Below, piece after piece: positions 5,367-19,991 of a stretch of DNA of 20,000 nt. The DNA is from an uncultured virus (IMG/VR IMGVR_UViG_3300032246_002559). Taxonomy: Duplodnaviria; Heunggongvirae; Uroviricota; Caudoviricetes. How positions within the stretch are numbered: position 1 is the stretch's first letter; each line of letters begins with the position of its first letter. The notes under the pieces are model-generated. The model saw only the letters and a program-made list of their open reading frames with translations. It was not told where the DNA came from and ran no database searches. The translations under genes were made by a program, and so were the position numbers. Location of the stretch: IMG/VR virus record IMGVR_UViG_3300032246_002559; one strand, 5' to 3'.

Positions 5367-5881
5367 TATTCTACCCGACGGCCAATGATGTTGAGATCGC
5401 CGACCACGCCCGAACCTCCGCCGGCTAGAGTGATGATCATGGCAGTGTTAGAACTACCGATCTTTGGCGGGTAAAAGTTAATGGTGTTGCTACCGCCTGA
5501 GGAGATGGGAGCCTTGAAAACCACGACGCCCGATCCGTCTTCAATCTTAACACTACCCGAAGTAGGTGTTGAGGAATATCCGCAAGCGATACCAGTCACA
5601 ACGTGGTTACGGCCCGGGCCAGCGGCGGGCAAATTGATTACTGCGGCGGCATTAGTGCCAGTCGCGTAGTCTCCAGAGGCAACGGGTATATTGATAACCT
5701 GGCGCCCTTCCCAGGCAAGATAGCGTTGATCCAAGGAGGTAGAAACCTTCCCGCTCTCAAATCCGGACACGACATTGGCCCTACGATCGAAAGTAGTGAC
5801 AAGGCCCGATGGGGCGCTTTGAGGTACTGCGATCACAACTGCCCCGTCGAGGACATTACCGCTAGTGTAGGCGACACTCAT
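5366..5881 (-). CDS. Hypothetical virion structural protein (beta-rich, Ser/Gly-rich)
   Basis: Likely start is ATG at 5881 (AAGGAGA RBS; ATGA overlap with 5878..6087), giving 171 aa. Confidence 0.65.
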   Translation of the reverse strand: MSVAYTSGNVLDGAVVIAVPQSAPSGLVTTFDRRANVVSGFESGKVSTSLDQRYLAWEGRQVINIPVASGDYATGTNAAAVINLPAAGPGRNHVVTGIACGYSSTPTSGSVKIEDGSGVVVFKAPISSGGSNTINFYPPKIGSSNTAMIITLAGGGSGVVGDLNIIGRRVE

Positions 5882-13453: not shown

Positions 13454-15373
13454 TTAGAATTGGTTTCCTGTTGCCCCGGCACGAATCAAGGAGACCTTGG
13501 CTTGCCATAAGATAGTTTTGCTTGCCTCGCCAGTACATGTGATTTTTAGCGAGTTATTTGTGGCATCTGCTACTGCCGTGACAGTCCACGCTGCTGCTCC
13601 TGTGTCTCTAGTCTCAATGTCTTGAGATACAGCCCCTGTCATTGAAGTAGTCCCGCCCGAAGACCTTTTAATAGATCCTACTAATTTTACAGTGATAGTA
13701 TCCCCGACCGTTCCTGACGCACCACCAGTCTGAGTTCCTAAAATGTTGGCTTCAAACCTCCACACCTCGCTGGCAACCAGCGTCATGCGGGTGGTTGAGC
13801 CGTCGACAAATAGTTCTGTAGCAGTTCCGTTAGATGTAGTATTATATACAAAAACATCAGTGTAGCGACCATTGGTAGGAGTAAGATATGTATCAATCTG
13901 GCGGACTGGTGTTCCAGACGAACCAAATACTAGATAGTTATTTGCGCTAGCAGTAATAGTGGTTACTAGAATTCCACCAGAAAAGGTTTTCGCTCCAGAT
14001 ACAGTTTGAGCGCCAGACAAGGCAACATAGGTTGAAGATAAGTCAGGGATGTCACCTGAAGCTAGGGATGCGTAAGACAGGGTTGTCCCATTCCCCTTAA
14101 GGAAGCCTGTTCCGATAGAACTTAGACCAGTACCACCGTTAGCTCCAGCAAGAGTGCCAGTCACAGCAGAAGACTGAGAGATGTCGATTGCGCCAAACGC
14201 TGGCGCTCCTCCGCCCGAAGCAATTCGCAAAACTTGATAGGCTGTGCCAGCCGATGTTGCCGATATTGCAGAAGTACCATTGCCCAAAAGAACGCCAGCA
14301 GAAGTCAACGTGGTGGCGCCCGTACCGCCATTGCCAACGGGCAATGTTCCCGACAAATCTCCGACTGGAATGGATGCCGAAGCACTCAATGCGCTAGCAC
14401 CGTTGCCTTTGAGATAGCCAGTGAGGGTAGAAAAGATAGGCGCGGATGAGAAGGTCTTGGTGCCGCTAATAGTGACTGATCCAGACACGGCCACATAGCT
14501 GGAAGATAGGTCGGGAATATCTCCAGAGGAAAGAGACGCGTAGCTGAGGACAGTGCCGTTGCCCTTAAGGAATCCCGTCCCAATAGAACTCAGGCCAGTA
14601 CCGCCATTCGCTCCAGATACAGGCGTCGACAAGGAAATGGTGTTGCCCGCTTTGCTCAGGCCTGTTCCTGCTAAGATTTGACCCGTGCCTGAGAACTGAA
14701 CCCAAACCAAATCGCTCGTGCCTAATACATAGGTTCCCGCAGGCTTCTGCATCACAAAGCCAGCATTAGCGTCCGTGCCCTCCTCAACGAAAGCAAAAGC
14801 GCCCGCATTTAGCTCGGTTGTTGAGTCAGCATCTGTCGATCGGGTTAGGGCCGAGCCTGAGCCGTTAAAGATGTAGATGCCGTTCTGCGATACCGTCGTT
14901 TGATTCCTGACTAAGACGCGGTCTCCGCTTGTCAGAGTGATACCATCGATGACCGCTGTGCCAGGATTGGAGATTGTAATATTGGACTGGGTTGCTACTC
15001 TGACCGACGCTTTTGGGTCAATCCCAGAAGCTATTGCGTCCACATAAGATTTGGTGGCGGCGTCTTGTGCGCTGGTTGGGTCTAGCAGCGATGTTATTTT
15101 CTGACTGTTAAGAGACACAGATCCGGTAGGAGACGCCATCTGATCCAGTCGACTGGTGCGTACCTGGGTGTCAAAATCGGAAATCTTTGATGCTGTCAGG
15201 GTGGGGATATCTGCAGCAATAAGAGTGGTAAAACTTAAGACGCCAGAGGCGTCAGTAATCATCAGTTGACGACTGGTCCCGTCCGCCGAGGGAAGGGTGA
15301 AGACCACAGACCCTGTTGCTGGGGCCTTAAGCGTTACTGATCCGGCTGGACTCTTGTCAAAATTAAGTGGCAT
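13454..15373 (-). CDS. Fibre-like protein (COG5301-like domain, internal duplication, C-terminal beta domain)
   Basis: 639 aa. Contains DAATKSYVD, DPKASVRVAT, GDRVLVRNQT..QNGIY and GGTG repeats. Confidence 0.75.
   Translation of the reverse strand: MPLNFDKSPAGSVTLKAPATGSVVFTLPSADGTSRQLMITDASGVLSFTTLIAADIPTLTASKISDFDTQVRTSRLDQMASPTGSVSLNSQKITSLLDPTSAQDAATKSYVDAIASGIDPKASVRVATQSNITISNPGTAVIDGITLTSGDRVLVRNQTTVSQNGIYIFNGSGSALTRSTDADSTTELNAGAFAFVEEGTDANAGFVMQKPAGTYVLGTSDLVWVQFSGTGQILAGTGLSKAGNTISLSTPVSGANGGTGLSSIGTGFLKGNGTVLSYASLSSGDIPDLSSSYVAVSGSVTISGTKTFSSAPIFSTLTGYLKGNGASALSASASIPVGDLSGTLPVGNGGTGATTLTSAGVLLGNGTSAISATSAGTAYQVLRIASGGGAPAFGAIDISQSSAVTGTLAGANGGTGLSSIGTGFLKGNGTTLSYASLASGDIPDLSSTYVALSGAQTVSGAKTFSGGILVTTITASANNYLVFGSSGTPVRQIDTYLTPTNGRYTDVFVYNTTSNGTATELFVDGSTTRMTLVASEVWRFEANILGTQTGGASGTVGDTITVKLVGSIKRSSGGTTSMTGAVSQDIETRDTGAAAWTVTAVADATNNSLKITCTGEASKTILWQAKVSLIRAGATGNQF
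13979..14614 (-). repeat. Internal 56-aa duplication (14447-14614 and 13979-14146)
   Basis: GANGGTGLSSIGTGFLKGNGT(V/T)LSYASL(S/A)SGDIPDLSS(S/T)YVA(V/L)SG...KTFS occurs twice. Confidence 0.9.
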
Positions 15374-17244: not shown

Positions 17245-17889
17245 TTAACAGGTTACTTCGGTAGTCTTAACAGTTGCAACCCAACGTATGGTCTTACCAT
17301 TCTCACCCGTTACGAAAATAGCAAGTCTACCATTGATAACATCTGCAGCAGCCCTAACATCCCAAAATACGCTAGTTTTGCCGACAATAATCTTATTAAA
17401 GTTGATCATGTTTGTTGACGCAGATCCAGAGTCCCTAGAAATGCATCCGGAAAGCGTAAATGCCGAACTGCCACCGACGGCGTCGGCTCGCCTTGCGACA
17501 ATATTTACGTCAAAAGCCATGGTCGCGTAGTTAGGTAACACAAATGCGTTGCTGTTTGAAGCACTCATGCCGTCTAGAGAAAGCTCTCTTTCTGTGCCGT
17601 CATTTGTCACCCCGCGAAGAATACCTGTCCTAGATTGAGCATCGCCTGCGGCGGAAAAAGATCCATTGGACTGAACGCTAACCTGGATGCCTCGAGCTGT
17701 TGCCCCAGTACCAACAATACTTTGGCCGTTCAAATCAAAAGCAGGCAAACGAACCACACTACCGGATTCATTCTTGGTAAATAACACTCCGTCTGCCGTA
17801 TTTATGGCGAGTTCGCCAGTAGAAAGCGCTTCTGCGGCAGGCATTGTGCCCGAAGATGTATTCCGCTTAAGTCGGATGGTATTGGCCAT
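17245..17889 (-). CDS. Mtd-N-like domain structural protein
   Basis: 214 aa. MANTIRLKR...LSTGELAINTADGVLF matches the major-tropism-determinant N-terminal pattern. C-terminal TGENGKTIRWVA domain. Confidence 0.75.
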   Translation of the reverse strand: MANTIRLKRNTSSGTMPAAEALSTGELAINTADGVLFTKNESGSVVRLPAFDLNGQSIVGTGATARGIQVSVQSNGSFSAAGDAQSRTGILRGVTNDGTERELSLDGMSASNSNAFVLPNYATMAFDVNIVARRADAVGGSSAFTLSGCISRDSGSASTNMINFNKIIVGKTSVFWDVRAAADVINGRLAIFVTGENGKTIRWVATVKTTEVTC

Positions 17890-19382
17890 CAGAATGTGCC
17901 GCCATCAACAGTGCTGGATGGATCTAGGTAGTCGGTTCCAGCAGATGCTGCCGAAAGTGCAGATGTTCCATTTCCCTTGAGAATGCCAGTGAGGGATGTC
18001 GCTCCAGTTCCACCGTTACTAACAGCCACAGTGCCAGTAACATTTGCTGCCTTGCCTGCAATGTCTCCATTAATGTCCGATCCAGGAATAGTTGATATTC
18101 CAGTAAAAGCACTTGTTCCATTGCCCTTCAGATAACCTGTCAGTGTGGTGGTACCAGTACCGCCATAAGCAACATTGATGACGGTACCATTCCAATTTCC
18201 CGTCGAAATGGTTCCTAGAGTTGTTATGGATGTCTGGCCGACATAAGTTGCTGCTATGTCAACTGAATCAGCATTGACGGTGATTCGACTGGAAGTGCCG
18301 ACGACGTTGAGTGTATTAGCAGACTTGGTTAGACCAGCCCCTGCAGCAATCTGACCCGCCCCAGAAAACTGAGCAAACGACAGTGCAGTGGAACCAAGCG
18401 TATAGGAACCAGTTGGCTTCTGCAAGACATAGCCGTTTGCTGCGTCGGTACCGTCCTCAACAAAGAAAAATGCCCCACCATTGAGCTTGGCCTCGGTATT
18501 GGCATCCAGTGCCCGAGTCATGGCCGACGAGGCACCATTAAACACGTAAATGCCATTCTGGGCAGATGTAGTCTGAGTCTTGACTAAGACTCTGTCACCC
18601 GACGACAGAGAAACGCCATCGATCGAGCTGCCAGGAGCGGAAATAGTGACATCCGCCTGAGTGGCAACCCGGACCGACTGTTTCGGATCAAGCCCTTGAC
18701 TGGTCGAGTCGACGTAAGCTTTGGTTGCGGCATCTTGTGAGTTAGATGGATCGGCTAGATTGGTAATCTTCTGACTGTTGAGGGTGACGGCATTGGTGGG
18801 GGACCCCATCTGGTCGAGTCGCGAGTTCCGTACAGCACTGTCGAAATCTGAGATCTTCGCCGACGAAAGCGTGGGGATGTCGCTCTCGACAATAGATCCT
18901 CCGACGGTAACCAGGCCTTTAGCGTTGACGGTGACCTTGGAGTAAGTGCCTGCAGTGACGCCAGAGTTCGCAAGCGTTGTTGTGATGGAGGTAGTGCCCG
19001 ACCCGGTGACGTCGCCGTAGACATTGATCGTCTGGTTGGCGGTCAAGTACCCCTGGTTCTTAACGAACTCGGTGGTGGCAATGCGGGTGGAATTGTCGGA
19101 GTAAAGGCCTGTGGTAGCGGTAGCCTGTGAACCAAGACTAACTGTGGATCCGAAAGTAAACGCGCGACTGATGGTAACGGCAGAATTGCCGCTCAGCGAC
19201 AAGAAGGCACCCTCACCACCAATAGGAATAATGGTGCCAGCAGTTCCGCCTACGCCACCAGTGCCGAATCCGTAATAGAGAACCTTATCGACCTCGTTGA
19301 AGGCCAGTTCTGCGTTGTAAAGACTCGGTGGGGCGCCGGAGCTTCCGGATGTGCGGCGCTTAATACGTATGATATTGGCCAT
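17889..19382 (-). CDS. Fibre-like protein with Mtd-N-like start and COG5301-like domain
   Basis: 497 aa. MANIIRIKRR...ELAFNEVDKVLYYG, RIATTEFV, GTYSKVTVNAKGLVT, DPKQSVRVAT, GDRVLVKTQT..QNGIY. Ends VDGGTF. Confidence 0.8.
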   Translation of the reverse strand: MANIIRIKRRTSGSSGAPPSLYNAELAFNEVDKVLYYGFGTGGVGGTAGTIIPIGGEGAFLSLSGNSAVTISRAFTFGSTVSLGSQATATTGLYSDNSTRIATTEFVKNQGYLTANQTINVYGDVTGSGTTSITTTLANSGVTAGTYSKVTVNAKGLVTVGGSIVESDIPTLSSAKISDFDSAVRNSRLDQMGSPTNAVTLNSQKITNLADPSNSQDAATKAYVDSTSQGLDPKQSVRVATQADVTISAPGSSIDGVSLSSGDRVLVKTQTTSAQNGIYVFNGASSAMTRALDANTEAKLNGGAFFFVEDGTDAANGYVLQKPTGSYTLGSTALSFAQFSGAGQIAAGAGLTKSANTLNVVGTSSRITVNADSVDIAATYVGQTSITTLGTISTGNWNGTVINVAYGGTGTTTLTGYLKGNGTSAFTGISTIPGSDINGDIAGKAANVTGTVAVSNGGTGATSLTGILKGNGTSALSAASAGTDYLDPSSTVDGGTF

Positions 19383-19649
19383 TTACCAGTTGCCTCCATC
19401 GACGATGTGGTCGTTGACCCACTTCTGGTCGACGGCCGAATAAACGAGTAGGTCAGTGGCCGCAGGGCTAGTGACCTGAACGTCCTGGAGACCGGCGAGC
19501 GTGCGGGTATTGAGAGGAAGCACGTTGGCCACGTCGGCCGGAACAAACTTCGCCTGAGCGGAGCTATAGACAACGACTTGGCCGGATTGGGGGACTCCGG
19601 AGAAGTCGTCCTGGTCCTGGATCCGTGTAACGATCCTGTAGGCATTCAT
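19383..19649 (-). CDS. Small fibre-module protein
   Basis: 88 aa, GGAGG RBS. Two copies of a (G/D)xxxVYxxxxxK(F/W)V module with LQDV. Ends VDGGNW. Confidence 0.7.
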   Translation of the reverse strand: MNAYRIVTRIQDQDDFSGVPQSGQVVVYSSAQAKFVPADVANVLPLNTRTLAGLQDVQVTSPAATDLLVYSAVDQKWVNDHIVDGGNW

Positions 19650-19666
19650 GTGCGGCCTCCACAGGA

Positions 19667-19676
19667 ATTTACACCG
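19667..19676 (-). promoter_or_regulatory. CGGTGTAAAT motif, copy upstream of the fibre cluster
   Basis: Identical to 3146-3155; both copies are intergenic and precede structural genes. Confidence 0.45.
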
Positions 19677-19686
19677 TGCAACACCG

Positions 19687-19721
19687 CTCGTCCCAGCGCA
19701 GATCGACCGATCTGCTGCGAG
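19687..19721 (-). promoter_or_regulatory. Candidate bacterial SECIS hairpin
   Basis: CUCG-CAG-CAGAUC-GGUC-GAUCUG-cg-CUG-gga-CGAG. The loop G is 22 nt downstream of the in-frame UGA at 19731-19733. Confidence 0.55.
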
Positions 19722-19724
19722 GTT

Positions 19725-19946
19725 CTATCGTCAAGTTGAGCAAGCAGGAGGACGGGGCACCATTTTAATCGTCGGACGATAATAAGTCCTCGTCGCAACT
19801 CGAGGCCTAGCAACTGCTGGCTGCGGTTTAGCAACCACTGGCTGTTTTTGGCCAACCACCCTGAAGTTGCTGCATGCACACGGATCGCAAGCGCAAGTTT
19901 CGCCACACGGACATGCCGATAAAGCTAAAATCAAAATCCAAATCAT
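19725..19946 (-). CDS. Small Cys-rich exported protein/lipoprotein, candidate selenoprotein with C-terminal CxxU
   Basis: ATG at 19946 after GAGGG: MIWILILALSACPCGETCACDPCACS...RPPACST-TGA-CGA-TAG. 71 aa if TGA is a stop (end 19731), 73 aa if it is read as Sec (end 19725). Confidence 0.6.
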
Positions 19947-19958
19947 AATATTGCCCTC

Positions 19959-19991
19959 AAAGAAAAAGGGGTGGCCACCAAAGGCCACCCC
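19959..19991 (-). terminator. Rho-independent terminator of an upstream gene outside the window
   Basis: Minus strand reads GGGGTGGCC-TTTGGT-GGCCACCCC-TTTTTCTTT: a 9-bp GC-rich stem plus U tract. Confidence 0.85.

Follow-up and report, generated by a model that had tools for sequence, protein, structure and literature searches.

A candidate selenocysteine codon and insertion element at the end of a small gene in an uncultured caudoviricete

The small gene and its 3′ end

The subject of this report is a small gene, and the hairpin that follows it, in the DNA of an uncultured virus of the class Caudoviricetes (IMG/VR record IMGVR_UViG_3300032246_002559). The whole stretch analysed, 20,000 nucleotides (nt) in length, is referred to as the window. 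The gene is an open reading frame (ORF) of 71 codons on the minus strand (Table 1). Its 3′ end, preceded by a GCT codon, reads TGC TCA ACT TGA CGA TAG, with the TGA, CGA and TAG in frame after codon 71. The original prediction, which gave no strand, proposed that this TGA is decoded as selenocysteine (Sec) with the aid of a hairpin acting as a selenocysteine insertion sequence (SECIS). The gene end is present as it described.

The product of the 71 codons, MIWILILALSA-CPCGETCACDPCAC-SNFRVVG...RPPACST, begins with a strongly hydrophobic segment (residues 1–11). This is followed by a cluster of six cysteines with the pattern CPCGxxCxCxPCxC (residues 12–25). The tail behind the cluster is basic and proline-rich, with 9–11 lysines and arginines and 6–10 prolines, and ends in A-C-S-T. 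The AlphaFold model of the protein is poor, with a mean confidence (pLDDT) of 49, and residues 3–10 form its only confident helix. No family of the PHROGs database matches the protein, and gene callers missed the window's version of the gene.

The 21 complete genes of the window end in TAA (14) or TGA (7), with none ending in TAG, and a further ORF of 69 amino acids (aa) ends in TGA at 5878. The TGA-terminated ORFs listed in the original prediction (at 629, 2116, 4159, 4845, 5878, 16928 and 17889) all hold. As TGA is thus a normal stop in this phage, at the end of seven other ORFs, any recoding would be site-specific and not the product of an altered genetic code, as had been argued. The other TGA stops of the window mostly overlap the next start, as ATGA, GTGA or TGATG; free-standing stops are nearly all TAA, and a free-standing TGA is unusual.

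The hairpin GCAGAUC-GGUC-GAUCUGC is located directly behind the gene and sits in the minimum-free-energy fold. The first G of its loop is 22 nt from the UGA, the distance originally given, and the extended hairpin starts eight nt on from the TGA. An extension of the stem by CUCG/CGAG pairs, also part of the original prediction, is not found in this fold; the lower stem is formed instead by CCU/GGG and GC/GC pairs around a bulged A. The energy of the upper hairpin, computed for the window only, is -9.4 kcal/mol. No U tract follows the hairpin in any lineage, and it is not among the calls of the terminator scan. A role as an intrinsic terminator was ruled out because the U tract is absent.

Table 1. 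Coordinates of the small gene, its 3′ elements and the adjoining features in the window
Feature	Position	Strand	Evidence or remark
Intrinsic terminator of the upstream major-capsid-like gene	19991..19959	-	Terminator scan; 9-bp GC-rich stem, then TTTTTCTTT
Shine-Dalgarno sequence GAGGG, 7 nt before ATG	19958..19954	-	GAGGAG or AGGGAG at the same place in relatives
Small ORF, codons 1–71 (ATG at 19946..19944)	19946..19734	-	Seven Cys invariant in four sequences
TGA, candidate Sec codon 72, last position of C-x-x-U	19733..19731	-	Kept in 5/5 contigs
CGA, Arg73	19730..19728	-	AGG in the other two lineages
TAG, proposed true stop	19727..19725	-	Invariant; sole TAG stop among the window's called genes
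Extended hairpin, candidate bacterial SECIS	19722..19692	-	12 pairs, bulged A, C/U mismatch
Upper 7-bp stem with GGUC apical loop	19715..19698 (loop 19708..19705)	-	Fold and covariation
Conserved box ACGGTGTAAATTCCTGTGGAGG before the next gene	19677..19656	-	19 viral contigs; 24/29 columns invariant
Downstream 88-aa gene, synteny anchor for relatives	19649..19383	-	ORF

Conservation of the gene end and covariation of the stem

The small protein is almost without public relatives, and the neighbouring 88-aa gene was therefore taken as a synteny anchor. This yielded 21 loci, and the upstream region was read in 20 of them; L024 was left out, having no upstream DNA. The small gene is present in five of the 20 loci, which fall into three sequence types: L002 and L005 (the window type), L006 and L007 (the second type) and L022 (the third). 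The other 15 loci pass straight from the terminator of the capsid-like gene to the conserved box, with neither the small gene nor the hairpin.

Between the three types the small protein is 42–50% identical. In the comparison of the window with L006 the identity is 42%, whereas the adjoining 88-aa gene is 95% identical, and it is against this fast divergence that the conserved gene end stands out. Record G003, which contains L006, ceases to resemble the window in DNA sequence at position 19680 of the window. These sequence comparisons point to a cassette that is fast-evolving or mosaic, being hypervariable or recombining. The reading frame is nonetheless kept across the types, differences in length are of whole codons, the ribosome-binding site is retained and all seven cysteines are invariant, from which it follows that the small ORF is a real gene.

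Further relatives were sought by several routes. A word-indexed protein search with the window protein gave no match, and a profile built from four sequences, run against sets including one of 5.8 billion, retrieved only P0001, a 72-aa entry that is the protein of L007 itself. An exhaustive phmmer search of 1.84 billion representatives returned P0001 and one repeat protein of 1375 aa, rejected as a chance cysteine-rich match. Searches of IMG/VR with the protein, the profile and a degenerate DNA motif for CxCxPCxCxNF[KR]xVG found the same five contigs and no more. Metagenome contigs of the JGI contributed only an identical contig of 6156 nt. A 16-residue match to the Cys motif in a Bacteroidales metagenome-assembled genome, found among GTDB genomes, is not a homologue.

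The window-type stretch occurs in contigs of 20 sequencing runs from 18 studies of lake, freshwater, riverine or marine metagenomes, and no RNA run is listed among the runs that carry it. Contigs of four DNA runs differ at 13 variable places, none of them within 19645-19834; these contigs are near-identical and the comparison has little power.

The original prediction named TAA or TAG at the position of the UGA in homologues as an outcome that would speak against it. All five contigs, and thus all three lineages, carry TGA and end in C-[S/N/F]-T-TGA-Arg-TAG. The gene ends of the three types are TGC TCA ACT TGA CGA TAG, TGC AAC ACT TGA AGG TAG and TGC TTT ACC TGA AGG TAG. For Arg, the window type uses CGA and both other types AGG; the change amounts to two synonymous substitutions, as expected if the codon after the UGA is translated. 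This continuation consists of one codon only, and is thin but consistent evidence.

A column-by-column comparison of the three lineages gives the limits of this conservation. The last nine codons are invariant in 14 of 27 columns and TGA-Arg-TAG in seven of nine, while none of the 10 columns of the spacer from TAG to stem is invariant. In the hairpin, the 5′ arm has three invariant columns of seven, the loop four of four and the 3′ arm three of seven. The 33 columns after the 3′ arm include one that is invariant, against 24 of 29 in the box before the next gene. Conservation therefore extends through the TAG, ceases, and is resumed only by the loop with the two pairs that close it.

The stem itself is maintained by compensatory changes around the invariant GGUC loop, in keeping with the hairpin conservation that had been proposed as a check. 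Its versions are GCAGAUC/GAUCUGC, ACAGGUC/GAUCUGU and (U)CGUGUC/GACACG(C). The upper stems of the four sequences have 7, 7, 7 and 6 pairs, and the distance from UGA to loop is 22, 23, 23 and 22 nt. Of the 28 stem cells 96.4% are paired, and both sides have changed in three of the seven pairs. The observed covariation score was reached by two of 500 shuffles, with the limited power of four sequences. Where the register was slid by 1–3 columns, only 18–54% of cells were paired.

The combination of features is also rare elsewhere. A scan of IMG/VR for TGA-Arg-TAG with TCGGTCGA found 114 places, and a stem of at least six pairs is present only in the five contigs of the family; the remaining 109 matches have stems of 2–5 pairs. 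In about 234 kb of the phage group (five group records, of which G003 carries L006, and the L007 locus) there are 22 hairpins with a GGTC loop and at least five pairs, and outside the family none stands behind the in-frame TGA of a gene on the same strand. Given so small a family, the comparative evidence for recoding of the UGA with a bacterial-type SECIS can be regarded as good.

The L006/L007 lineage alone has a second hairpin, immediately after the GGUC hairpin (about 2440-2475 in both loci). It too differs by compensatory changes, with GAGACGC/GCGTCTT in L006 and GGGGCGC/GCGTCCC in L007. A long-range helix, GUAGCAUC/GAUGCUAC, brackets both hairpins in these two loci.

Proposed selenocysteine insertion and competing explanations

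In a published model of the bacterial SECIS, the loop is of 3–9 nt with a G in the first two loop positions, the upper stem is of 4–16 bp, the minimum free energy is -7.5 kcal/mol or lower and the distance from UGA to loop is 16–37 nt (PMC13188914). The window hairpin agrees with this model throughout, with a loop of 4 nt that begins with G, a stem of 7 bp, a distance of 22 nt and an energy of -9.4 kcal/mol. When the same rules were applied to the 21 gene ends of the window, one passed, that of the small gene.

The candidate element shares with the SECIS of the E. coli fdhF gene a UGA followed closely by a hairpin with a 4-nt GGUC loop, the G and U of which are read by E. coli SelB (PMC8659212, PMC3834832). 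It differs in being carried by a phage, in lying wholly behind the stop, where it is untranslated, in a UGA-to-loop distance of 22–23 nt against 18, and in an upper stem of 6–7 uninterrupted pairs with no conserved bulged U. The upper stem begins 15–17 nt after the UGA. In the window an A bulges out seven pairs below the loop, and the other lineages show other irregularities there. The element is accordingly SECIS-like in general and not a copy of that of fdhF.

The position behind the stop has a precedent in the pET-TRSTER constructs for rat TrxR1, which have the same layout of a penultimate Sec, one codon, a stop and then the SECIS (PMC3834832). This layout is proven functional with E. coli SelA, SelB and SelC, and the 17-nt E. 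coli SECIS ggttgcaggtctgcacc, with its GGUC loop, works in it behind Sec-Gly-stop (PMC3834832). A SECIS that follows the stop, with Sec at the penultimate residue, is thus mechanistically feasible. Unlike these man-made constructs, in which the codon encodes Gly, the phage arrangement would be natural and conserved, with Arg and a TAG stop. A further likeness is to metagenomic bacterial CxxU selenoproteins such as 'hypothetical protein 1' of the Sargasso Sea set, which has a CxxU motif, no known function and a small-loop hairpin behind its UGA (PMC1088965). No sequence homology to the Sargasso Sea CxxU proteins is shown, and the phage family differs from them in consisting of only three TGA lineages, with the candidate Sec at the C-terminal end.

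Taken together, these features make it probable, with appreciable room for doubt, that the UGA at codon 72 directs SelB- and SECIS-dependent insertion of Sec at the penultimate residue (CxxU-R) of a 73-residue protein. How SelB binds and Sec is inserted, where the Sec machinery comes from and what the protein does would then be as follows. On arrival of a ribosome at the UGA of this small late gene, the hairpin 15–16 nt downstream would offer its GGUC loop to host SelB carrying GTP and Sec-tRNASec; the phage itself could in principle supply the SelB factor. Sec would be inserted, the single Arg codon read and translation terminated at the UAG. The product would consist of a hydrophobic N-terminal anchor, a metallothionein-like cluster of six cysteines, a basic proline-rich linker and a C-terminal C-x-T-U-R, an end that could form a selenenylsulfide or bind metal. 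Where selenium or SelB is lacking, termination at the UGA would leave a form of 71 residues, without U-R.

The balance tips, if narrowly, towards a natural family of membrane-anchored phage micro-selenoproteins with a metallothionein-like Cys cluster, a C-terminal CxxU-Arg and a SECIS located wholly in the 3′ untranslated region. In such a family, the choice between a 71- and a 73-residue form of a fast-evolving late protein would be tied to the selenium status and SelB machinery of a freshwater host.

Several results weigh against selenocysteine at this position. The folding z-scores of the four sequences against dinucleotide shuffles (-1.3, -1.5, -2.0 and +0.3) are in the range of chance, and the case therefore rests on the comparison between sequences; it is the comparative pattern, and not the fold energy, that exceeds chance. 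Rfam gave no match for the whole window at the gathering threshold and, at E <= 10 on 19640-19800, just two spurious matches to models of a small nucleolar RNA and a microRNA. There are three independent lineages at most, as L006 and L022 share AGG TAG and may not be independent. The small gene stands directly behind a strong terminator, which makes its expression putative. The hairpin also departs from the fdhF type. E. coli SelB requires a bulged U (U17), on the 5′ side of the upper stem, and in the fdhF type 11 nt separate the UGA from the 17-nt stem-loop (PMC8659212); the phage element has no conserved counterpart of that U, and its UGA-to-loop spacing is 4–5 nt longer than in fdhF.

The proposal of a selenoprotein was supported by the comparative tests and not by the searches for Cys homologues, sel genes and tRNA-Sec. 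A homologue with Cys in place of Sec is the usual hallmark of a selenoprotein, and for the Sargasso Sea families it was Cys homologues, or several TGA sequences, that led to acceptance (PMC1088965). In all the protein and DNA searches, no homologue with Cys or any other sense codon at the UGA position was found. The UGA does complete a C-x-x-U; the equivalence of this motif to CxxC is putative. The tRNA-Sec model found nothing above its cut-off in five related records, and a single sub-threshold match was identified by ARAGORN as a tRNA-Met. This was the only tRNA that ARAGORN reported in G002, G003, G005 and G006, and none was reported in the window. No sel gene, which the original prediction had suggested looking for in the phage DNA, occurs among the 44 ORFs of G005 or among the 135 of G006 that were scanned, with 72 more in G006 outside the scan. 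The records that carry the small gene are 4–17% complete.

These results are shared ground with the main rival, in which the TGA is an ordinary stop, the TAG a fail-safe tandem stop and the conserved hairpin an element with another job in the cassette. The hairpin could stabilise or process the transcript end, serve as a binding site for a phage or host protein, or modulate expression of the next gene. This explanation is fairly unlikely. It agrees with the seven other TGA-terminated ORFs, with the unremarkable z-scores, and with searches that returned no Cys homologue and scanned records that hold neither sel genes nor tRNA-Sec. A protective 3′ hairpin would also be plausible in a cassette between a terminator and the box of the next gene, and the second hairpin of L006 and L007 stands directly behind the first. 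It leaves unexplained, however, why Arg and TAG are kept through the exchange of CGA and AGG while the next 10 nt are saturated, and why a SelB-type GGUC loop lies at a fixed 22–23 nt from the UGA. Among other jobs for the hairpin, that of terminator is excluded by the lack of a U tract, and the 15 of 20 loci without the small gene are also without the hairpin.

Readthrough of the UGA independent of Sec, by a near-cognate tRNA for Trp or Cys and perhaps aided by the hairpin, would make a fraction of the product two residues longer. UGA followed by C is a weak termination context. The window has this C, and the Arg-TAG end looks translated, but the other lineages have UGA followed by A, and two extra residues would serve no evident purpose if the one at the UGA were unimportant. 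The position of the UGA, which completes C-x-x-U, and the loop, which matches the SelB determinant, are further points that make this kind of readthrough very improbable. It is scarcely credible that the ORF is not a gene and that the shared features arose by chance or as a recombination artefact. The absence of a PHROGs match or of any match above the Pfam cut-off, the pLDDT of 49 and the failure of gene callers would fit; against these stand an ORF that is open in three lineages with whole-codon length differences, seven invariant cysteines and a conserved Shine-Dalgarno sequence, and the occurrence of the window type in contigs of 20 runs from 18 studies.

Among viruses, only a few poxviruses are known to have proven selenoproteins, and a SECIS that lies wholly behind the stop with a penultimate Sec is known only from constructs engineered for expression in E. 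coli. A literature search that did not extend to subscription journals or supplements found no paper on a phage selenoprotein, and the literature found on selenoproteins and viral recoding concerns viruses of eukaryotes. In a 2026 review of prokaryotic selenoproteomes, the words phage, virus and viral are absent.

If the UGA does encode Sec, the small protein would be among the first selenoproteins from a virus of bacteria, and phages would exploit the UGA-recoding machinery of their hosts for their own late proteins. A bacterial SECIS would then work naturally from behind a stop, a possibility for which gene finders and SECIS searches must allow. The compact element of 18–31 nt, with its natural variants, would be usable for recombinant Sec tagging at protein C-termini, and the small gene would be a marker of selenocysteine use by the host of the phage. 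Selenocysteine at this codon is directly testable with an E. coli reporter.

Likenesses of the protein and phage context

The cysteine cluster resembles that of the plant Ec/PEC metallothioneins, with the spacing C-x-C-G-x-x-C-x-C-x-P-C-x-C aligned residue for residue over 15 positions (residues 11–25). The scores for Pfam family PF02068 are 22.3, 22.3 and 16.8 bits, short of its cut-off of 31.8, and no Pfam family reaches its cut-off. A profile match in the PDB to 2KAK (wheat Ec-1) aligns all six cysteines at E = 0.5. The match is short, biased by Cys and below threshold, and the N-terminus, the basic tail and the CxxU end have no counterpart in these proteins. The likeness to metallothioneins is a lead from the sequence and does not establish membership. 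Another likeness is to the eukaryotic selenoproteins SELENOK and SELENOS, which have an N-terminal membrane helix, a disordered basic region rich in Pro and Gly, and a Sec that precedes the C-terminus by one or two residues. The small phage protein recalls this architecture; there is no homology. SELENOK and SELENOS use a eukaryotic SECIS in the 3′ untranslated region together with SBP2, and act in the degradation associated with the endoplasmic reticulum.

Fusion with the next gene by readthrough of both stops was considered and rejected: the window has an open frame there, whereas in L006 and L007 the frame is blocked, and in L022 the next gene is out of frame. At the small gene, neither an overlapping nor an antisense ORF is conserved. 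Look-alikes of the small protein gave a weak lead to Planctomycetota (score 0.82, below the reliable level), which was not used.

Upstream, the terminator of the capsid-like gene abuts the ribosome-binding site of the small gene, an arrangement that is likewise found in L006, L007 and L022. The upstream gene encodes, in the relatives, a 339-aa capsid-like protein with the C-terminus ...RRVLLGAL. Downstream, the box ACGGTGTAAATTCCTGTGGAGG is probably the late promoter and ribosome-binding site of the next gene, bounding the cassette and lying outside the candidate SECIS. In 19 IMG/VR contigs the box ACGGTGTAAATTYCKGTGGAGG is conserved directly upstream of the 88-aa gene, with or without the small gene. 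An AT-rich clade of related phages has a related box, GGTGTATTTATCTTTGGAG, and the phages encode sigma-factor-like proteins of their own.

The window represents a tail and tail-fibre block according to PHROGs. It includes several tail-fibre-like paralogues on the minus strand (17245-19382 and 13454-15373), with an N-terminal MANxIRxKR motif and a domain labelled by PHROGs as head decoration or tail fibre. The nearest match of a tail-fibre-like protein to an isolate is to cyanophage P-SS2, with 53% identity over 31% of the query. Against isolated phages, a blastn search with the region gave no match, and neither did the capsid-like and portal-like proteins; the lineage is without a near relative among isolates.

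Record G005 and the window have only 98 nt in common, at the window's end and with 97% identity; from the small gene G005 continues to the side of the capsid, portal and terminase. Its 44 ORFs include a terminase, a sigma factor and an ERCC4 nuclease. The large terminase (L232:16682-19549) appears to bear an intein, with Intein_splicing and Terminase_6N domains. G006 is a complete relative of 149 kb without the small gene and with one tRNA (Met). It has a RecA-like gene with a LAGLIDADG domain (L226:5005-7101), and also encodes a PF10520 lipid desaturase (L227:14489-15031), PhoH, ThyX, a split Pol III alpha and about eight glycosyltransferases. The only matches of the Pol III alpha are at about 33%. 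The look-alikes of the desaturase are mostly viral, followed by a bacterial cluster dominated by Verrucomicrobiota; this lead to a host was not used.

In the AT-rich sister clade (L187-L221, about 315-563 per locus), the slot that separates the capsid-like gene from an 88-aa-like gene is occupied by another Cys-rich gene. Its product of about 83 aa (...CDTCPE...WTCTKCGCNLK...QDCPIKKWP) has a weak match of 16.6 bits to DUF6171. The gene ends in TAA or TAG in 35 of 35 loci and is followed by no GGUC hairpin. The slot between the capsid-like and 88-aa genes seems to collect small Cys-rich genes.

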